From an uncultured Nitrososphaerota archaeon (GTDB lineage: Archaea; Thermoproteota; EX4484-205; JAAOZO01): a stretch of DNA of 64,000 nucleotides. Both the position numbers and the translations under genes were made by a program. Below the pieces are notes generated by a model. The model was not told the DNA's origin and made no database searches. It saw only the letters and a list, made by a program, of their open reading frames with translations. Positions 5,144 to 61,052 of this stretch are shown in pieces; within the stretch, counting starts at the first letter, position 1; each line of letters begins with the position of its first letter. Location of the stretch: the NCBI GenBank assembly GCA_964408285.1, contig CAYOYV010000004.1, positions 1 to 64,000 of the forward strand, in the 5' to 3' direction.

Positions 5144-7330
5144 TTGGAATGGTGGGAGAAACCAGTAAGGATGATGAGGCTTGACTATCTCGATGCACTG
5201 CAGAGAATGACCAAAGCCGACTTAGAAGAACTGGCACGATGGAAAAAGGAAGAGTGGAACGTGAATTGCGAGTGGGTAATGGGGACTTCCGGCATGGCAC
5301 CCGGATTAGGTTATCTGACGACTTTCAATGCGACCGAATTCGAGAAATATCCCGGACTCGGGGAGTTTGATCTAATAAGGGAATATCTGCCATATGCAAG
5401 GAAATATGGGATTAGGGTCCTAGCATATTTGAACATGCACTGGTACTCCTATGATTTTGCGGCCAAGCATTCCGATTGGGAACAAGTCACCGGAGACGGA
5501 AGGAGCTATGGCAGGATCCACCCCCTCTATGGCTCCGGGACAACCATGTGCATAAATTCCAGTTGGAGAAACTGGTCCTTTGAACTCATAGAGGAATCAA
5601 TGAAGACTGGCATAGATGGGGTCTTCCTTGATGGGCCAGTTGTCTTCCCAGAGTGTTGCTACTGCGACTCGTGTAGAGAGAAATTCAACTCAGCATATCA
5701 ATCAGGAATGCCGAAATGGGAAGACTGGGCAAATCCGAAGTGGAAAGACTTCTTGGACTTCAGGGAGGTCTCCATGGCAGATTATCTGAGAGATGCCAAA
5801 GAAGTTGTCAAGAGGATGAATCCGAAGGGCGTGATTTTCCTTAACGCAAGAGGTTGGCGACCGGGTAATTGGAGAGTTGCCGGTAACATAGAAAAACTCA
5901 GTGAGTATCAAAACTTCAACGGGGCAGAGGCGTTCTTTCACCCTGGCACGAATCCCCCGCCTCTGTTCTTCTCAGCGATTGAGGCCAAACACCTGCTTAC
6001 TGAAGGAAAGCCGGCAGTGGTCTTCACTCACCACGCCCTCGGGACTTGGCACTATTTGCCCCTGCCACAGTTCGAAGCAGAGCTTGCAATGGCTCAGACC
6101 ATCGCCTGTGGAGCGAATCCATGGTTCGCCATATTCGACTATTCGCTGGATCATAGCTCGGAAGAATCACTCAGGCCTATCAAGAATATCTTAGGATTCA
6201 TGGCGAAGAACGAGCAATACTACACAGCGACCGCTTCTGAATCGGATATTGCTCTGCTGATTTCCTCTCAGACCTCAACTTTCTATCTCTCGGAACTGAA
6301 CGAACTATATCTGGATCCTGGGACAGGGGTTGAAAAGGATCTTGCAATAGAGGGAGTAACGGGTGAGAAGAAGATTGACCTTGCCGCCAGAAAACGGATA
6401 TGTGATGAGCTATACTCGGACTGCGTTCTCGGTTTCGCGAACATGCTCTGGAGGAACCACTTTCCCTTCGATGTCATATCAGACAAGCATCTTAAGAGGG
6501 AACCGCTAGGTAGGTATTCGACCCTGATTCTACCAAACGCAGCTTGTCTTGACGATGCCCAGATAGAATCTATATCCAGTTTCGTGAAGGAAGGAGGAAG
6601 AATAATCAGTTCCTTTGAAACAGCTTCCTACGACGGGCGTGGACGTCAGAGAGGCAAGAATCCAATGTGGGATTTGTTTGGCGTGGACAGAATCGAAGGG
6701 ATGATGACTCCCAGAGTAGGAGAGGAATACATGAGAATCGTGGGGGTACCTGAAAGAACGACATCAATCCCCGAAGGAAAGTGGATTCCCAGGCCGAGCT
6801 ACACCCTCAAGGCAATCCCAAAGAAGAACGCCTTCGCCCCTTGCATCTACCTGGCCCAAATAGGAGCTTACTACTCTCCGCCCAGAGGAGATTCTATCTA
6901 CTCCGCGATGGTATTCAATAGATATGGGCTTGGAACTTCGATCTTCTTCTCAAATCTGATCGGTGAATTCTACGTTAGGTACAAAATGCCGTCAATCTCC
7001 GGTTTAGTCAGCGACGTGATGCGAACCACGGGCAAGAAGATCCCCGTAGTGGCCGTCGAGGCCCCGGGGACAGTCCAATTCGAGCTGAGAAGCCAACATA
7101 ACCCAAGGAGGCTCCTCATTCATCTAGTGAACAACACTGGAGAAATGGAAAGGCCATTTTCCAACCTGATTCCGGTTCGCAATATCAAAATAAAGGTCAA
7201 CGGTCGCATGCCGCAAAGAGCATTCAAGTTGAGCGATGGAAAAAGACTTGATCCGAAGGAAATCGCCAATGGTATCTTGTACGAGATAGAGCAATTGGAT
7301 GTTTACGAAGTGATTGTCATAGAGCCATAG
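5144..7330 (+). CDS. Putative glycoside hydrolase: GHL6/GH42-like TIM barrel plus beta-galactosidase trimerisation (GATase-like) domain
   Basis: DGVFLDG..CCYCDSCREKF motif; C-terminal FPFDVISD..YSTLILPNAACLDD..FVKEGG matches the trimerisation-domain pattern. Confidence 0.7.
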   Translation: MEWWEKPVRMMRLDYLDALQRMTKADLEELARWKKEEWNVNCEWVMGTSGMAPGLGYLTTFNATEFEKYPGLGEFDLIREYLPYARKYGIRVLAYLNMHWYSYDFAAKHSDWEQVTGDGRSYGRIHPLYGSGTTMCINSSWRNWSFELIEESMKTGIDGVFLDGPVVFPECCYCDSCREKFNSAYQSGMPKWEDWANPKWKDFLDFREVSMADYLRDAKEVVKRMNPKGVIFLNARGWRPGNWRVAGNIEKLSEYQNFNGAEAFFHPGTNPPPLFFSAIEAKHLLTEGKPAVVFTHHALGTWHYLPLPQFEAELAMAQTIACGANPWFAIFDYSLDHSSEESLRPIKNILGFMAKNEQYYTATASESDIALLISSQTSTFYLSELNELYLDPGTGVEKDLAIEGVTGEKKIDLAARKRICDELYSDCVLGFANMLWRNHFPFDVISDKHLKREPLGRYSTLILPNAACLDDAQIESISSFVKEGGRIISSFETASYDGRGRQRGKNPMWDLFGVDRIEGMMTPRVGEEYMRIVGVPERTTSIPEGKWIPRPSYTLKAIPKKNAFAPCIYLAQIGAYYSPPRGDSIYSAMVFNRYGLGTSIFFSNLIGEFYVRYKMPSISGLVSDVMRTTGKKIPVVAVEAPGTVQFELRSQHNPRRLLIHLVNNTGEMERPFSNLIPVRNIKIKVNGRMPQRAFKLSDGKRLDPKEIANGILYEIEQLDVYEVIVIEP

Positions 7331-35461: not shown

Positions 35462-36137
35462 AATAGCCAAGGAGTTTCTATTGCTCCTACGATTACTTAA
35501 GATGTCAAGTAATAGAGGGGAGCTAGTCACGACGGCGAGTAGGCTGGCCGAACTCGCGAACATGCCCAAGCGATCTGTATCTGCAATATTGGAGGGTTTG
35601 GCCTCTGACGGTTGGATAGTTAGGAAACTGAATAAGGAAGGAGAACGTGTTCTCCTTACATCAAAGGCCTATCATAGAATAGCACAAGAGCTGTCCGGCG
35701 TTTCCATTCCTGACATTCTGCTCAGGTCAGAGCGAACGGAGCAGACGGTCACCGGCACAGTCTTTACCGGAAAGGGAGAAGGTGCCTATTATGTCTCACA
35801 GAGGCAATACTTCATTCAGATGCAGGAAAAGCTCGGCTTCATGCCATATCCAGGTACGCTGAACCTGAGGTTGAGCGATTTTGATGATCTTAACAAGATA
35901 CTTCTTCTCCATTCGCTTCCCCCGATCAGGATAGCGGGTTTCAGCACACATGAGAGGACATTTGGAGATGTCCTCTGCCACGAGGTCCGGATAACTGGAG
36001 AGCTGAAGGTCTATTTAGCGAGATCCGAACGAACTTCCTATGACCTGACGGTTGCTGAATTGATATCAGATGTCTACCTCAGGAAGGCATTACATGTGAA
36101 GGATGGAGATCCGGTTAGGTTCTCCTTTTTCCCTTGA
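35424..36137 (+). CDS. ribK: CTP-dependent riboflavin kinase with N-terminal wHTH (RbkR-type); start uncertain
   Basis: GTVFTGKGEGAYYV, LGFMPYPGTLN, RTFG, ELIS..LR..L and DGD. Confidence 0.9.
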   Translation: MNPRKKSRNAYGRIAKEFLLLLRLLKMSSNRGELVTTASRLAELANMPKRSVSAILEGLASDGWIVRKLNKEGERVLLTSKAYHRIAQELSGVSIPDILLRSERTEQTVTGTVFTGKGEGAYYVSQRQYFIQMQEKLGFMPYPGTLNLRLSDFDDLNKILLLHSLPPIRIAGFSTHERTFGDVLCHEVRITGELKVYLARSERTSYDLTVAELISDVYLRKALHVKDGDPVRFSFFP

Positions 36138-36591
36138 CGTTTGAGGCGATCAGATTCTTTATCGTGCTTGAATGGGACAGATATCCGTAATCGAATCTCC
36201 TGATCCTAACGAGCTTCGTCTTATGCCATTTCATTTCCTCCATGACCTCTTTTGCTTGCGAGTATATCCACTTCTGGTCGTATCCTATAGCTATGATATC
36301 GGGCTTCAGTTTCAAGATTATTCTCCTTATGCCACTTTTCAGGTCGTACGTGGAAGGTCCCAGAACCGCTCGGTCAACCGGTTTCAGGGTTCTTATCATG
36401 TATAGTCTGCTCTTTTCATCGAAAGTCGGATCGGCCCCGGTCTCACGCTTGACGAGCCTGTCCCGGGCTACAACAACGACAAGCTTTGCTCCAGGCCCTC
36501 CGGCTGCTTTAGCCCTTTCCAAGTATCTTATGTGAGCCTTGTGTATGAGGTCAAAACGACCTGAAGCAACCACGACCTTGGGCTTAGCCAT
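36115..36591 (-). CDS. ribL: Archaeal FAD synthase (cytidylyltransferase family)
   Basis: ASGRFDLIHKAH, VVVARD, KPDIIAIGYDQ and SSTIK; adjacent to ribK. Confidence 0.82.
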   Translation of the reverse strand: MAKPKVVVASGRFDLIHKAHIRYLERAKAAGGPGAKLVVVVARDRLVKRETGADPTFDEKSRLYMIRTLKPVDRAVLGPSTYDLKSGIRRIILKLKPDIIAIGYDQKWIYSQAKEVMEEMKWHKTKLVRIRRFDYGYLSHSSTIKNLIASNVKGKRRT

Positions 36592-36646
36592 CCGTAGACG
36601 GGACAAGGCATAAAATAAATAAAACTATCCGCCTGAACCTCGCCGA

Positions 36647-36782
36647 GGGCCCATAGCTCAGCATGGTAGAGCTGCAGCCTCTTAAGCTGAAGGTCGAGGG
36701 TTAGCCTGGGCATGCGGTGCTCAGACCCCGAACAAACCGATGCCTGACTGTAGGCGCTGGGAAAGTCCCTCTGGGCCCGCCA
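36647..36782 (+). tRNA. tRNA-Lys(CTT), CCA encoded, T-loop interrupted by 59 nt (probably two introns: 36703-36732 and 36737-36765)
   Basis: Acceptor GGGCCCA/TGGGCCC + G + CCA; D-stem GCTC/GAGC; anticodon arm CAGC-CTCTTAA-GCTG (G27.A43 mismatch); T-stem GAGGG/CCCTC with 66 nt between the arms instead of 7. Confidence 0.88.
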
Positions 36783-36854: not shown

Positions 36855-38048
36855 TTGATGCCAACCACTCCTAAGAGGAGCATTTTGTCTTTTCTTGAAA
36901 CCTTATCCGTCGCTCCCATCATATCCCTATTTTACCACGATAGCTGGGTTCAGCGCTTCAAGAAGGTGAGCTATATTGTCGTTCCGTTCTACGAAATCTG
37001 GGATCATAACAACCTACGCGAAGTCGTAGGACACAAGGACATTCACGATTTTCTGCATTTCGATGGTCCTGTAGGACTCTCGAGCATAGGGCCAGATGAC
37101 TACGTCGTGAGCGAGGCCTATTTCTCGGATTTCGTCAGACTATCAACCGAGAACAATTTTGACTTCGTCATCGCTTGGGACGTGCCTACATACGCCGACT
37201 GGCCTGCGGAACTGTCCTGGGAGAACGCGGTTTACGGACTTGAGCAGATAAGGAGACTAGTTAGACAGGGAATTGAAGTCATCGGTCTGCTCAACGGAAA
37301 CAGCAGAACGCAGTTTGAGAAGTGCGCCGATTCGTTGATATCGATGGGCGTTGATAGCGTAGCTGTTCACGCCTCGGATTACCTGAGGCACAGAAAGGAT
37401 TACCTTCTAGCGGGCCTTCTTCATGATTCAGTAAAGACTGCCATTTCGAGATTCAGTAGGACCTTGATTGTTGGAGCAACCGACCCATACCTCATAAAGC
37501 ATGAGGGCAAGGATCTCTTTCCGAACGTTTCAGTATGTGGGTTCAGCTGGTTCATAGACGCGCAGAATGGCTTAGCCTACAGCATCAGGGGAAGGGTCAA
37601 TACGTACGAAAACGATGCCCTTTGCAGTTGCCCTCATTGCAGTACAAGGGAACCAGCTGTGATCTCTAGGTCCGTTCCAGACAGAGTTCTTCACAATTTC
37701 TTGGTCGTTGAGAACTCAATCGAGGGAGAAACCTTTCCTAGCTTGGAGACATCAGACATAGTCCACCGGGGACAGAAGCTCGTAATGGCAAGTGATATCC
37801 ATCTTGGGACAAAGGAGAGCCTGTTGCTTCGTTTCATCGAGATGATGCGGAGGGAGAGGCCGGAAACTCTAGTCTTAGTCGGTGACACTTCCGATTTCAC
37901 CGATTATGACCCCCAACTTCTCCACGATCATGCGAAGTCTTTCTTCAGACTGTTATTTGACATCGGGTGTGAGGTGTATCCTGTTTTCGGGGCGAGGGAT
38001 AGATCAAACCACCGGAACGGCATTGATCAAGGCCGGATTGACACCTGA
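36855..38048 (+). CDS. TGT-superfamily-like TIM barrel with Zn site, fused to a truncated calcineurin-like metallophosphoesterase domain
   Basis: AWDVPTYADWP, IGLLNG and CSCPHC..LHN; then MASDIHLG, LVLVGD and FGARD, after which the ORF ends. Confidence 0.55.
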   Translation: MMPTTPKRSILSFLETLSVAPIISLFYHDSWVQRFKKVSYIVVPFYEIWDHNNLREVVGHKDIHDFLHFDGPVGLSSIGPDDYVVSEAYFSDFVRLSTENNFDFVIAWDVPTYADWPAELSWENAVYGLEQIRRLVRQGIEVIGLLNGNSRTQFEKCADSLISMGVDSVAVHASDYLRHRKDYLLAGLLHDSVKTAISRFSRTLIVGATDPYLIKHEGKDLFPNVSVCGFSWFIDAQNGLAYSIRGRVNTYENDALCSCPHCSTREPAVISRSVPDRVLHNFLVVENSIEGETFPSLETSDIVHRGQKLVMASDIHLGTKESLLLRFIEMMRRERPETLVLVGDTSDFTDYDPQLLHDHAKSFFRLLFDIGCEVYPVFGARDRSNHRNGIDQGRIDT

Positions 38049-47790: not shown

Positions 47791-48450
47791 TTGCTGCCAT
47801 CTGAGGCTTCGGCTAGGCTAAGGCGTGAGTCCCTGAACTTATGCCAAGAGTTAACCAGAGTGACCCTTGACTGCATAAGGACTCTTCACAACATGATTAC
47901 GGCCTTGTCAGAGGGGAATGCAAGCGAGGCGGTGAGTCTCTTCCCAAGAGTTTCCTCGCTTAAGGACGAGGCCACAAACCTGAAACGATCGTTGGCTGAA
48001 GCCCTGATCTCTGCTGGGGCGATCCTCTTCAGCAGAGAGGACTTCCTTAGGCTCGCCGTTCCATTGACAGAAATGTGTGACGGAGCCGAAGGCGTCGCCT
48101 TTCGCCTCAAGGAAGCATCAAGCCGTAAGGAATTTCCCGAGAAACAGGTGTTGGATGCCGTAAGGGCTCTTTCAGAAGGCGTGTTGGACTGCGCCCTCAA
48201 ATTGCGGGATGTTACCTATTCATTGAATTTCGATATAAGTAAGGTAGAGTCCCTGGTGACTTCTGTAGAGACCTCAGAAAGACAAGTGGATGACCTCTAT
48301 AGAAAGGCAGTCATCAAGCTCGTATACTCGAAAATGGAAGTCCCGAACCTTCTTCTGATGAGGGACGTTCTTGAGATGCTTGAGGAAGTAGCCGACAAGG
48401 CTGAGGACGCGGCTGACGCGTCTAGGATGCTTGCGCTGAGTGTTCTCTAG
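47791..48450 (+). CDS. DUF47/PhoU-like phosphate transport regulator
   Basis: SREDFLRL, ERQVDDLY and LEEVADKAEDAAD. Confidence 0.82.
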   Translation: MLPSEASARLRRESLNLCQELTRVTLDCIRTLHNMITALSEGNASEAVSLFPRVSSLKDEATNLKRSLAEALISAGAILFSREDFLRLAVPLTEMCDGAEGVAFRLKEASSRKEFPEKQVLDAVRALSEGVLDCALKLRDVTYSLNFDISKVESLVTSVETSERQVDDLYRKAVIKLVYSKMEVPNLLLMRDVLEMLEEVADKAEDAADASRMLALSVL

Positions 48451-48451
48451 G

Positions 48452-49024
48452 ATGAGCGAGAAGGAAAACCAAGCAAAAGAGAAAATGATTGCGGAATTGG
48501 TAAACGACAGGCTGATAGTCTGGAACGTAGAGCACTCCAGAGCCATCTATAGGAGCGGATACTATGGAAAGCCAATCGGAGTTCCAAAGCCGAAGAATTT
48601 CGAGTTCAATGCTCCACTTACCCTAGATCTGATCGAGGGGCTCCATCTGCTCAGGAGTGGAACGATAGGAATCGTTAAGGGAAACAAGAAGGTAGGTCCC
48701 GCAGCCCTCGAGCGGATGGCCAAGAAGTATCACGAAGGATTCGACATAAAGTACAAAGTGTATGAGGATCTAAGAAAAAAAGGCTATGTAGTGACACCTG
48801 GGATAAAATTCGGCTGCACCTACGCGGTATATGAGCATGGGCCGGGAGTTGACCACGCGCCATTTCTTGTAGAGGTGAAGGAGCAGAATGAATCCGTCAC
48901 AGCTCCGGATCTAGTGAGGGCTGGTAGACTTGCGACAACCGTGAAGAAGCGCTTCGTTTTCGCAATCATAGACAAAAGGACCGGGTCTATTGACTATCTC
49001 GTTTCTAAATGGTGGAAGGCATAG
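48452..49024 (+). CDS. endA: tRNA-intron lyase (splicing endonuclease), catalytic subunit
   Basis: GIKFG..AVY, DHAP and RLATTVKK (Tyr/His/Lys triad); GYYGKPIGVPKPK loop. Confidence 0.92.
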   Translation: MSEKENQAKEKMIAELVNDRLIVWNVEHSRAIYRSGYYGKPIGVPKPKNFEFNAPLTLDLIEGLHLLRSGTIGIVKGNKKVGPAALERMAKKYHEGFDIKYKVYEDLRKKGYVVTPGIKFGCTYAVYEHGPGVDHAPFLVEVKEQNESVTAPDLVRAGRLATTVKKRFVFAIIDKRTGSIDYLVSKWWKA

Positions 49025-53296: not shown

Positions 53297-54172
53297 ATGA
53301 ACAAGCAAGGGTACCCGAATTTCCTAAATCTATATCCCTCAATGGCATTCGGCGGAGCACAGTCTGATCTAGAGGCTTCGGAATTCGTCTTGATAGGTGC
53401 TCCTCTCGATTCGACCGGGACCTTCAGGACCGGATACAGGGAAGGGCCAAACGCAATAAGGACCGTTTCCGCTCAAATCGAGCAGTACAGCTACCGCTTC
53501 TCAGTTGATGCTTCGAAGGCAAACGTACATGACCTTGGAGATCTCTCACTGGGTCCTGAGCCTGCAGAAAACGTGAATGTGGTGGAACAGGCAGTTAGCC
53601 GGATAAGGTCGATGTCCAAGATACCCATAATTCTGGGGGGAGAACACACAATCGCATTCGGAGGGTTTCTTGGGAGCGAAGCGGATCGTCTGATTGTGTT
53701 TGACGCTCACATGGATCTCAGGGATGAGTACCTCGGCTCCAAGTTCTCGCATGCTACCTGGCTAAGAAGACTCTTGGATAGAGTGGATCTAGGCAGAGTC
53801 CTCCAGGTCGGAACGAGGTCGACATCCGAAGATGAGCTCGCCTCAAATCCACCTCGCATCGAGATGGTGGCGTCGGACGCACTTATGGCAAGGAGATTCG
53901 AAAGTGTCAAGAAATGGATCAGGCCGGGGTTGAAGTATTATCTTTCAATCGATCTAGATGTGTTTGATCCGCCATACGCACCCGGTGTGGGAAATCCTGA
54001 GCCCGAAGGTATTTCGCCTACTGTTTTCTTCGATCTGCTGAAAGAACTATCCCCTCTTGACATGGTCGGGTTCGACGTCTGTGAGCTTATACCGAGATAT
54101 GATCCAAGTGGGATAACGACGATACTTGCCTCAAAGATAGCCTTGGAGCTTCTTTGCGCCAAAATCGCCTAG
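53297..54172 (+). CDS. speB: Agmatinase (ureohydrolase family)
   Basis: GGEHT, FDAHMDLRD, SHAT, SIDLDVFDP and APGVGNPEP. Confidence 0.9.
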   Translation: MNKQGYPNFLNLYPSMAFGGAQSDLEASEFVLIGAPLDSTGTFRTGYREGPNAIRTVSAQIEQYSYRFSVDASKANVHDLGDLSLGPEPAENVNVVEQAVSRIRSMSKIPIILGGEHTIAFGGFLGSEADRLIVFDAHMDLRDEYLGSKFSHATWLRRLLDRVDLGRVLQVGTRSTSEDELASNPPRIEMVASDALMARRFESVKKWIRPGLKYYLSIDLDVFDPPYAPGVGNPEPEGISPTVFFDLLKELSPLDMVGFDVCELIPRYDPSGITTILASKIALELLCAKIA

Positions 54173-59171: not shown

Positions 59172-61052
59172 TCATACAGTGGGCGGCGGAGGTGGAATCT
59201 CAAGTGGCGGACCAGTCCGTCCTCTTGCCAATATCATCAGAGCTATCGACACAAATGTAGCAGTCACTCCCCACATCAGATAGAAAGTCAACGGAATCAC
59301 TTTGAACAGGGTGCAGCAATATAGCGTGAATGAACTGAAGAAGATTCCAAACCAGATGACCTTACTGTGCCTGAATATTTCCTCTCCCTCCAAAGGTTTT
59401 GTAGGGAACGAAGTAAAGCAAGCACTCATGGTTGTAGCCAACAGGCCGACATCTCCTATTATCGTATAGCCTAAATCATACACGAAGTAGAATGGCACCA
59501 TGAGTATCAATGAGCTCACTATTTTCAGCACTGCTATCGTCGCAGATCTCTTCTTGTCAAGTTCTCCTTCATATTCAGTCCTGCTCGGCGAAGCGAAAGG
59601 TGCCAGAAATACGATGCCCGTTATGAGGAACGATATCAATCCATAGAGCCAGATCTTGGTCTCGGCCCATACGTTGGTGACGAGCGACACGAAGACGGAA
59701 AACGCGACATTGAAGAGGAATACAAACACGACAGTGAGCAGAACATATGGAATGACCGAGATCATCGTGTCAATGTCAAGGATATTTGGATATCCGTTGG
59801 CCTCGACATACGAATAGATCAAGAAGAGCATAACCGCTGAAAGCAGAACGGCCATTAGCTGTCCGGCTCTAAGGATGCCCCTCTTCCTCTTGTGTGCGTC
59901 GATCTGCTCTGGGGTTAGGCTCTTGAACGTCTCCTCTCCGTAGAATAGTAGGAAGTCCTTAAGCCAGTCTGGAATCGACAATCCGGAGATTGCGGAATTT
60001 ATCGTGGCGCCTAGGCCCGTGAAGCTCATGATGGCCGCGACCCCAGCCGACGCGCCAACTCCGACCGCAGTGGCCGTAGCCGCAGTTTCAATCGCCGGAA
60101 TTTCCCTAGGGCTCTCTTGCTGGCCTTCTTGTCGTCCTTGGCCGGCAAGGTACCTTATCGTATTCTGCAACAGCCTTTGGTTGTTTCTTTCATCAATGTT
60201 CTTTATCCCGTCCTTGTCAGAATCGTCGTCATCCCACAGATTATGATCGCCTATTATGACAACTTGCCCAAAGCCGCTCCGAATTAAGATCATGACTGGG
60301 GTATACGGTATGCCCTTACCTCGGTAGTACCAAGTCGCGTCGTTGTCTGTGGTTACTAGGGTCGTTGCTCCTGTCGATGTTATGTTTGTTGCTGCGTAAA
60401 CCTCTATCTCGCTGACGCCCTCGGTTATCTGATGTTCCTCAATCCTGTCTAATATGATCCAATATTTTTGTCCGCCAACGTAATCTGTCGGGTCACTGAT
60501 GCAGTCCCCGTAGCCGGACGAGCCGAACGATGCCCCGAATGTCCTTGCCAGCCTTTGCATATCGTCCATTGATACCCAGTCCGATATGAGTAGAAGGCTT
60601 CCTCCACCATGAACCCAATCAGATATGGCTGCGATCTCGCTGTCACTGTGTGCTTTGACGCTCAGGACGATTACCAAACAAGCGACGCCCTGCAATTTGG
60701 AGTAAGTTATGACCTCACCTGGATTCAGCGTCGAAACAGTGTATCCGATGTCACGAATGGCTCTCGCGAACCCCGAATACTTCCCCCGCGTGCTTTCGGT
60801 CGAGGATGGATTGGTCCCTATAGTTGAGAGTGGAGTATGAGCCTCATCTATCAGTACAAGGTCCCCGAAAGGAATCCCATTATTTATGTTCGAGCTCTTG
60901 TCTGACTGGCCGTTCGCTCTTCCCCCTGCTTGAGCATTCAGAGTGACCTGACGTGCAACGAAGCACAAAACAAATAGAATGAGAAACCAGACTATCGCAA
61001 GCCCCTTGCGCAACAGAATCACCGCTGTGCGTATGGGTTTGAGCATTTGCAC
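59172..61052 (-). CDS. Membrane protein: extracellular GIFT/DUF4350-like domain, multi-TM degenerate M50-like domain and polyproline tail
   Basis: N-terminal TM; VLIDEAH..DWVHGGGSLLLISD..GQVVIIGD..NQRLLQN; DSDKDG; about 8 C-terminal TMs; ends PPPPPTV. Confidence 0.65.
   Translation of the reverse strand: MQMLKPIRTAVILLRKGLAIVWFLILFVLCFVARQVTLNAQAGGRANGQSDKSSNINNGIPFGDLVLIDEAHTPLSTIGTNPSSTESTRGKYSGFARAIRDIGYTVSTLNPGEVITYSKLQGVACLVIVLSVKAHSDSEIAAISDWVHGGGSLLLISDWVSMDDMQRLARTFGASFGSSGYGDCISDPTDYVGGQKYWIILDRIEEHQITEGVSEIEVYAATNITSTGATTLVTTDNDATWYYRGKGIPYTPVMILIRSGFGQVVIIGDHNLWDDDDSDKDGIKNIDERNNQRLLQNTIRYLAGQGRQEGQQESPREIPAIETAATATAVGVGASAGVAAIMSFTGLGATINSAISGLSIPDWLKDFLLFYGEETFKSLTPEQIDAHKRKRGILRAGQLMAVLLSAVMLFLIYSYVEANGYPNILDIDTMISVIPYVLLTVVFVFLFNVAFSVFVSLVTNVWAETKIWLYGLISFLITGIVFLAPFASPSRTEYEGELDKKRSATIAVLKIVSSLILMVPFYFVYDLGYTIIGDVGLLATTMSACFTSFPTKPLEGEEIFRHSKVIWFGIFFSSFTLYCCTLFKVIPLTFYLMWGVTATFVSIALMILARGRTGPPLEIPPPPPTV

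Follow-up and report, generated by a model that had tools for sequence, protein, structure and literature searches.

The window analysed here, 64,000 nt from contig C4 of the 1.82-Mb assembly of an uncultured Nitrososphaerota archaeon (46 contigs, 49.4% G+C, 93.7% complete), carries on its forward strand at 36647-36779 a tRNA-Lys(CTT) gene whose T-loop appears to be split by two introns. The acceptor stem (36647-36653 with 36772-36778, 7/7 pairs), a D arm that contains G18 and G19, the anticodon CTT at 36681-36683 in a loop of 7 nt, the variable loop AGGTC, the T-stem arms GAGGG (36696-36700) and CCCTC (36767-36771, 5/5 pairs), and the discriminator G, which is followed by a genomically encoded CCA, were read directly from the sequence and mark the locus as an archaeal elongator tRNA-Lys(CUU) gene. 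The two arms of the T stem are separated by exactly 66 nt (36701-36766), as compared with 7 nt normally. Deletion of 36703-36732 (intron 1) and 36737-36765 (intron 2) joins TT, CAAA and T to give the T-loop TTCAAAT, which is the loop present in all ten tRNA-Lys(CTT) orthologues found in relatives. Both the spacing and this pair of deletions had been claimed in an earlier sequence-only reading of the locus and were borne out.

In its unspliced form the gene escaped standard tRNA finders, as had been anticipated. No tRNA was reported by ARAGORN in the whole window, and none was found at the locus with Rfam at gathering thresholds. At permissive thresholds the Rfam tRNA model scored 26.9 bits against a cut-off of 29; model positions 1 to ~53 aligned on exon 1, and the acceptor was closed falsely on CTGGGCATG within the insert. 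Single-intron solutions, which had been named as an outcome that would speak against two introns, were rejected, as none of the eight possible cuts read from the sequence gives a loop beginning with TTC. When four constructs were submitted to ARAGORN, a tRNA-Lys(ctt) was called solely in that with both introns removed. Excision of both introns would restore a canonical mature tRNA.

The splice sites were assessed by enumeration of 14,326 one- and two-piece deletions totalling 59 nt within 36691-36775. A filter that demanded a TTCRA loop, an acceptor stem with 7/7 pairs and a T stem with no fewer than 4/5 pairs was passed by twelve distinct products. The pair 36703-36732 and 36737-36765 gave the best composite bulge-helix-bulge (BHB) score (20.0), and the runner-up at 15.8 needs a 1-nt exon. 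Among 2000 mononucleotide shuffles of the 63-nt insert, a score of 20.0 was reached once (mean 9.5, standard deviation 3.3), and a second criterion, which combines at least 3/4 pairs in both central helices with well-paired flanking helices, was passed by 13. Pairing of 3/4 in both central helices alone was seen in 803 of the 2000 shuffles; thus, the central helices by themselves carry no weight, and the signal lies in two hairpins that are in register with the splice sites. The same exons were obtained when BHB motifs were disregarded: spliced alignment with 68 compact reference tRNAs, which ARAGORN had identified at loci of relatives (62 after a length filter in a repeat) returned the exon blocks ...GGGTT / CAAA / TCCCTC.... 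Coordinates of the features are collected in Table 1.

Table 1. Features of the interrupted tRNA-Lys(CTT) gene and of the splicing endonuclease genes. Coordinates refer to the window unless another contig is given.
Feature	Coordinates	Strand	Remarks
A/T-rich box	36610-36626	+	21-37 nt upstream of the tRNA 5' end
Exon 1, tRNA positions 1-55 (to T54 T55)	36647-36702	+	6-8 mismatches per 56 nt with relatives
Intron 1, 30 nt, position 55/56	36703-36732	+	relaxed HBh'-like BHB
Micro-exon CAAA, T-loop positions 56-59	36733-36736	+	restores TTCAAAT; block in motif-free alignment
Intron 2, 29 nt, position 59/60	36737-36765	+	hBHBh' after loss of intron 1
Exon 3: T60, CCCTC, acceptor 3' arm TGGGCCC, G	36766-36779	+	5/5 and 7/7 pairs with exon 1
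Encoded CCA	36780-36782	+	read from sequence
EndA catalytic subunit, 194 aa	48440-49024	+	Pfam PF02778 and PF01974
Second EndA paralogue	C8:13446-13700		EndA-family match

The hairpin, the bulges and the central helix that the sequence-only reading assigned to each intron are all present at the positions given there. In intron 1, the central helix AGGG/CCCG (36697-36700/36727-36730) starts with an A.G mismatch that is followed by three G-C pairs, and the bulges are TT^A and AA^C (the caret marks the splice site). The inner helix runs as a G-C pair, a mismatch, three pairs, a wobble, three pairs and a wobble, and includes a 7-bp hairpin formed by 36706-36712 and 36718-36724. As judged by the definition of a BHB motif (a 4-bp central helix between two 3-nt bulges, each cut behind its second base, and at least one flanking helix, as hBHBh', hBH or HBh'), the geometry of intron 1 is a relaxed one only; a relaxed HBh'-like motif (central helix, bulge, inner helix) is described for endonucleases of the (alpha-beta)2 type in the available part of PMC3239211. 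Intron 1 ranks 16th of 5577 candidate BHB sites in the unspliced gene. The 5' arm of its hairpin, CTGGGCA (within 36706-36714), resembles the CTGGGCC of the gene's own acceptor 3' strand, for which the Rfam model takes it, and this likeness may be a trace of the origin of the intron.

In intron 2, the central helix is formed by T54, T55, C56 and A57 with 36760-36763, which gives three pairs and an A.G mismatch in fourth place, and the bulges are AA^C and AG^T. The inner helix starts with C36738-G36759, continues as a wobble, a mismatch, a wobble, four pairs and a wobble, and includes the hairpin 36742-36746/36751-36755; the outer helix is the abutting 5-bp T stem once intron 1 is gone. Intron 2 would hence be a BHB-type archaeal intron spliced by EndA, with a motif of the full hBHBh' layout (outer helix, central helix and inner helix with two bulges) that counts as relaxed, its fourth central pair being A.G, by the published classes quoted in the methods of an Asgard preprint.

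The motif of intron 2 depends on the removal of intron 1. In the unspliced gene only the third of the four central positions pairs, whereas after deletion of intron 1 the first three of TTCA/GGAA do so, in agreement with the earlier claim that this helix can form only after excision of intron 1. The rank of intron 2 rises likewise from 1549th of 5577 sites with intron 1 present to a tie at the top (listed second) of 3597 sites once it is removed. Furthermore, the intron 1 helix and the T stem compete for G51-G53. As intron 1 splits the T-loop segment 54-57 that intron 2 needs, intron 1 must go first in the model, and an order from intron 1 to intron 2 is probable on this ground. In silico, the transcript would belong to the order-dependent ('nested') multi-intron pre-tRNAs.

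We infer transcription, cleavage sites, order of removal and ligation as follows. The precursor would be made as one RNA, in which the 5' arm of the T stem (positions 50-53) would pair with CCCG of intron 1 and not with the 3' arm of the T stem. This pairing, together with the intron 1 hairpin, would produce the relaxed motif of HBh' type, EndA would cut 3' of U55 and 5' of C56, and the ends would be ligated by RtcB. Then U54, U55, C56 and A57 would be contiguous, the T stem would close, and, with the intron 2 hairpin, an hBHBh' motif would arise. Cleavage by EndA after A59 and before U60, followed by ligation, would give a tRNA of 74 nt (before CCA) with the T-loop UUCAAAU. As the order is fixed in this scheme, the CAAA exon would stay covalently attached throughout and would not be lost as a free tetranucleotide.

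Interruption of tRNA genes is widespread in this genome. In the whole assembly 17 matches to the Rfam tRNA model lie above the cut-off and 28 have an E value of 10 or less, and a census of tRNA genes gave 37 candidate loci, 23 of them with a good alignment to a compact reference. The 23 well-aligned loci contain 33 insertions of at least 8 nt (1.43 per gene); 20 are interrupted, 11 of them with two or more insertions. This load is comparable with that of the most intron-rich Thermoproteales. The interrupted loci are spread over, e.g., contigs C1, C8, C11, C14, C15, C17 and C18.

In or at the T-loop region, 13 introns were found in 12 genes. Position 59/60 is occupied in nine genes (Gly-TCC, Glu-TTC, Ala-TGC, Lys-TTT, Arg-CCT, Leu-CAA, Leu-GAG, a Ser gene on C26 and the window gene), 58/59 in Pro-GGG and Met-CAT, 53/54 in Thr-CGT, and 55/56 in no gene but that of the window. 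The nine 59/60 introns all have the T stem (5/5) as the outer helix and loop positions 54-57 in the central helix, and the composite score of intron 2 (11.25) lies inside the range of this class (9.8-12.5). The window gene differs from the eight other 59/60 genes in that it alone has the central helix split by a further intron. In the 59/60 helix of tRNA-Glu(TTC), a member of the same family (genome G002) has TTCA/TGAA with an 18-nt intron, whereas the present genome has TCCA/TGGA, a two-sided change that keeps the helix.

The near-universal T55 is replaced by C in three genes, all with a 59/60 intron: Glu(TTC) at C14:25383-25480 (+) with the loop TCCAAAT, Lys(TTT) at C8:53946-54118 (+) with TCCAAGT, and Gly(TCC) at C1:~123300-123410 (-) with TCCGAAT. 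C55 pairs with an intron G in Glu-TTC and Lys-TTT and faces A in Gly-TCC. As T55 is paired to A in Glu(TTC) of the related genome, the change in Glu is compensatory. The tRNA-Lys(TTT) gene apparently has four insertions, after ~24, 30/31, 48/49 and 59/60, the one at 48/49 with a perfect hBHBh' motif when folded by hand; it was missed by both ARAGORN and Rfam.

The possible relatedness of the window introns to others of the set was addressed by sequence comparison. The similarity of intron 2 to the 29-nt 59/60 intron of Lys-TTT was not significant (z 1.76; 46 of 500 shuffles). For intron 1 and the 53/54 intron of Thr-CGT a z of 3.46 was obtained (5 of 500 shuffles), but homology is not claimed, because this was one of 17 comparisons and some of the likeness follows from the need to pair with a GGG T-stem. 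A motif of the 58/59 type (GTTC/GAAC, as in Pro-GGG and Met-CAT) was tried by hand for the window gene and rejected, because its fourth pair does not form and cleavage would occur within intron 1, leaving no usable product. The 58/59 introns of Pro-GGG (C11:22732-22850, +) and Met-CAT (C18:~5600-5790, -) end in GAACAA and thereby repeat the exon CAA, so that the same mature product could arise in these two genes from cuts anywhere from 55/56 to 58/59. Intron 1 of the window gene ends in the same GAA^CAAA. It may be speculated that sliding of an intron through the CAA repeat explains the 55/56 site.

Orthologues were sought at the DNA level in 41 genomes, namely the window's own assembly and 40 relatives. 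Only the part of the gene up to T55 was matched (query positions 3-63), and homology ends exactly at the start of the insert. In six relatives the tRNA-Lys(CTT) gene is compact, differs from the window gene at 6-8 of the first 56 nt (~86-89% identity) and runs on after the equivalent of T55 as CAAATCCC.... Four further Lys(CTT) genes, three of them from the same family, have introns at 37/38, ~31/32 or 48/49 and an uninterrupted T-loop. A G27.A43 mismatch is common to the window gene and the orthologues. In one member of the family (G002, contig C1 ~1501-1620) the tRNA-Lys(CTT) gene carries two introns, at ~31/32 and 48/49, and its T-loop is uninterrupted; hence, intron positions in tRNA-Lys(CTT) differ between genera of the family.

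No second tRNA-Lys(CTT) gene, for which the sequence-only reading had advised a check, was detected in the assembly, which is 93.7% complete. Three further DNA runs (X2, X4 and X8) have contigs with the interrupted gene unchanged over 36647-36782, which supports it weakly, as these contigs represent the same population. The X2, X4 and X8 contigs showed no allele of this organism that lacks the introns, those of X9 having no coverage of the gene; a different organism contributed one short X8 contig, in which the sequence runs on as a compact tRNA. A pattern scan of metagenome contigs for the double-intron layout gave one match (L087, 151-310, -), which was rejected: it is an unrelated tRNA with the anticodon TCT that has an intron of ~30 nt behind the anticodon and only one intron in the T-loop, a 41-nt piece in which CAAA occurs by chance.

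The host encodes homologues of the enzymes that the proposed processing would require. An EndA gene had been placed at 48452; the open reading frame starts at 48440 and has an ATG at 48452. The best solved relatives of its product are 2cv8_A, 3p1z_B, 3ajv_B and 2zyz_B, which we take to be crenarchaeal catalytic subunits. The second EndA paralogue, a 217-aa open reading frame on contig C8, apparently lacks the catalytic His, as judged by eye from the triad positions, and RtcB is encoded on contig C15 (34836-36143). The host thus appears, by homology, to possess a splicing endonuclease and an RNA ligase, and the EndA pair is probably of the alpha-beta type.

The EndA protein is 67-70% identical to proteins of metagenome-assembled genomes (MAGs) labelled Brockarchaeota, Thaumarchaeota and Nitrososphaera. 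The aCPSF1/FttA homologue shares 47-48% identity with Brockarchaeota and Thermoproteota MAGs and 40-43% with Methanomethylicia. These relatives indicate a Brockarchaeota-like host and not a member of the Thermoproteales, the order to which the earlier reading had turned for background; the multi-intron tRNAs that it cited from that order do occur there, but the host itself lies outside it. DNA of the organism occurs in freshwater-sediment and sediment metagenomes.

The A/T-rich box upstream of the tRNA (Table 1) is a possible TATA-like archaeal promoter element, by its position only, and could alternatively serve the divergent gene 36115-36606 (-). Directly downstream of the tRNA lies an open reading frame for 397 aa (36855-38048, +) with no Pfam match at E ≤ 0.001. 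Elsewhere in the window, an open reading frame for 626 aa (59172-61052, -) gave no Pfam match at E ≤ 1e-5.

The observation made on 36647-36782 is confirmed by these data, and the structural reading given to it is supported. We estimate at roughly 70% the probability that the locus is a functional single-copy tRNA-Lys(CUU) gene with two introns of the EndA type in its T-loop. Several results weigh against this. Both the composite BHB score and the second criterion are our own definitions and were devised after the locus had been seen. Intron 1 has no outer helix, and 15 decoy sites score above it in the unspliced gene. Among the Lys(CTT) genes of the relatives none has the double T-loop intron layout, and since no relative has the same arrangement, covariation is not available for either intron. 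When folded with ViennaRNA, the GGG/CCC helix of intron 1 forms one register off, with a pair probability of 0.99 as compared with 0.002 for the productive register; comparable structures have -46.8 and -41.8 kcal/mol, respectively. The off-register pairing is favoured by the run of four C at 36726-36729 and by extra pairs to the variable loop, and in it the required cut sites are not 4 bp apart, so that no usable cut would result. In the intermediate, the central pairs of intron 2 have a probability of ~0.015. As a control, eight other T-loop introns whose sites are fixed by the product were folded, and their central helix exceeded a probability of 0.5 in only two of eight whole-gene folds and three of eight T-domain folds. 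Thermodynamic folding is therefore a weak judge here, although the objection to intron 1 stands.

The gene might instead be decaying or non-functional, the 63-nt insert not being removed, or not correctly, in which case AAG would fall to tRNA-Lys(UUU) or to a Lys(CUU) gene that the assembly lacks. Such an explanation could appeal to the two relaxed motifs, with only 3/4 central pairs and A.G as the fourth in both, to the unproductive register preferred by the intron 1 helix, to the room that an assembly of 93.7% completeness leaves for another Lys(CUU) gene, to the presence of the Lys(TTT) gene on C8 (~53946-54118) and to the fact that none of the 11 runs containing the locus is of RNA. It is nevertheless considered improbable. 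All exon parts are intact, from the 7/7 acceptor and 5/5 T stem to the G27.A43 mismatch common to the orthologues, and two hairpins stand in exact register with sites that restore the loop, a coincidence that 1 or 13 of 2000 shuffles reproduced, depending on the measure. AAG is moreover the major Lys codon (66% in 417 long open reading frames of the genome), and the tRNA-Lys(TTT) gene is more interrupted still, with ~4 insertions. As 20 of the 23 well-aligned genes are interrupted, interruption is the norm in this genome and not a sign of decay.

Two further explanations accept the introns and differ in how they would be removed. Splicing at other sites, with intron 2 removed 1-3 nt upstream to give TTCAAGT or with CGAA (36729-36732) as the exon to give TTCGAAT, finds some room in the twelve canonical-looking products that are arithmetically possible. 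TTCAAGT is reachable at a score of 15.8, and the loop of the paralogous tRNA-Lys(TTT) ends in ..AAGT. With intron 1 gone, moreover, the BHB score of intron 2 is equalled by that of a site displaced by one base at both ends (36736-36766), since pairing of C36737 with G36760 is possible; this is a further point against the proposed sites, although the product would have a loop of 5 nt. We regard such splicing as unlikely, since the TTCAAGT options need an exon of 1-3 nt or have poor central and inner helices (10.2-15.8 versus 20.0), the CGAA option, which the sequence-only reading had put forward as a refuting outcome, scores only 6.2 with none of the four central pairs formed in its first intron, and TTCAAAT is the loop of 10/10 orthologues. 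The proposed sites alone have the T stem abutting as outer helix, a layout found in the eight other 59/60 introns too. Little probability is likewise given to correct sites without an obligate order, i.e. four cuts in one encounter, or intron 2 leaving first, with the micro-exon held by pairing until ligation. Endonucleases of the broad-specificity (alpha-beta)2 type accept motifs that lack one bulge or helix, according to the available part of PMC3239211, and the thermodynamic models used predict these helices poorly, both of which would allow it. In the unspliced RNA, however, intron 2 has 1/4 central pairs and a BHB rank of 1549/5577, the T stem, which is to be its outer helix, draws on the very GGG that the intron 1 helix needs, and a freed 4-nt exon would be held by merely two Watson-Crick pairs.

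Double interruption of a T-loop has a precedent. In ARMAN-2 (Ca. Micrarchaeum), pre-tRNA-Pro(GGG) has two T-loop introns, at 53/54 and 59/60, and cleavage of a 59/60 intron has been shown in vitro, as reported in the accessible portion of Fujishima et al. 2011 (PMC3239211). As described there, the two genes are alike in having two BHB introns in or next to one T-loop, one of them at 59/60, with a very short exon between, and the ARMAN-2 host has a broad-specificity endonuclease, to which that of the present host may be likened. By the same portion of the text, the ARMAN-2 exon comprises 6 nt (54-59) and both motifs are strict hBHBh', whereas here the exon has 4 nt, the first intron lies at 55/56 and both motifs are relaxed (3/4). 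Here the first intron also cuts the central helix of the second motif, which it does not do in ARMAN-2 as described, and the ARMAN-2 enzyme is given as epsilon2, as compared with two EndA paralogues here.

Order-dependent removal has been published as well. Archaeal introns whose BHB forms only after removal of another are described in the available parts of PMC8450103 and PMC3728597, and in Thermoproteales (Pyrobaculum, Thermofilum) up to three BHB introns per gene, at non-canonical positions, 'nested' or close together and necessarily removed in order, are reported in those parts and in that of PMC4033280. The intron load there is given as 0.84 per gene on average and 1.54 per gene in P. calidifontis (PMC8450103 and the Asgard preprint, as excerpted). 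The present genome resembles the Thermoproteales in its heavily interrupted set and in a last BHB that would form after earlier removals, and differs in being a Brockarchaeota-like MAG from freshwater sediment. In nuclear pre-tRNAs of Cyanidioschyzon merolae, ordered BHB processing was followed by reverse transcription PCR (Soma et al. 2013, PMC3728597, accessible portion). These share with the window gene several BHB introns per pre-tRNA, one of them in the T-loop, and a preferred order of removal; however, C. merolae is a eukaryote, and in the account accessible the order is set by motif stability and most introns fold independently, while here it would be imposed by geometry.

Given the double T-loop introns of ARMAN-2 and the published ordered removal, the kind of arrangement is already known, and the window gene is an extreme example of it. 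Of the earlier claim that a 55/56 site with a 4-nt exon and relaxed BHB motifs is unusual, the anatomy thus stands and the word 'unusual' was overstated. Compared with these precedents, the window gene is set apart by the 55/56 site, the 4-nt exon, the way in which intron 1 interrupts the central helix that the second motif requires, and the lineage. In the limited literature searched, no description of tRNA introns in Brockarchaeota came up, as judged by title and beginning of abstract. It is a tentative and rather doubtful proposal that CAAA is the shortest exon yet in the archaeal EndA/RtcB pathway, that 55/56 is a new site, that an order wired into the geometry protects the tetranucleotide exon, and that the host adds to the Thermoproteales and some Asgard lineages a third hot spot of tRNA-intron proliferation, one not reported before, with ~1.4 insertions per gene, 59/60 introns in nine genes and three C55 tRNAs in step with their introns.

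The results suggest that heavy interruption of tRNA genes reaches a sediment-dwelling TACK lineage. The locus is one more case in which standard finders lose an essential tRNA gene: as ARAGORN and Rfam miss such genes, this MAG would be annotated without tRNA-Lys(CUU) and without about half of its tRNAs. If processed as proposed, the precursor would be a natural substrate for studying the tolerance of the endonuclease for weakened BHB motifs, a test of the smallest exon that the cut-and-ligate pathway can carry, and a case of one intron gating the removal of another.

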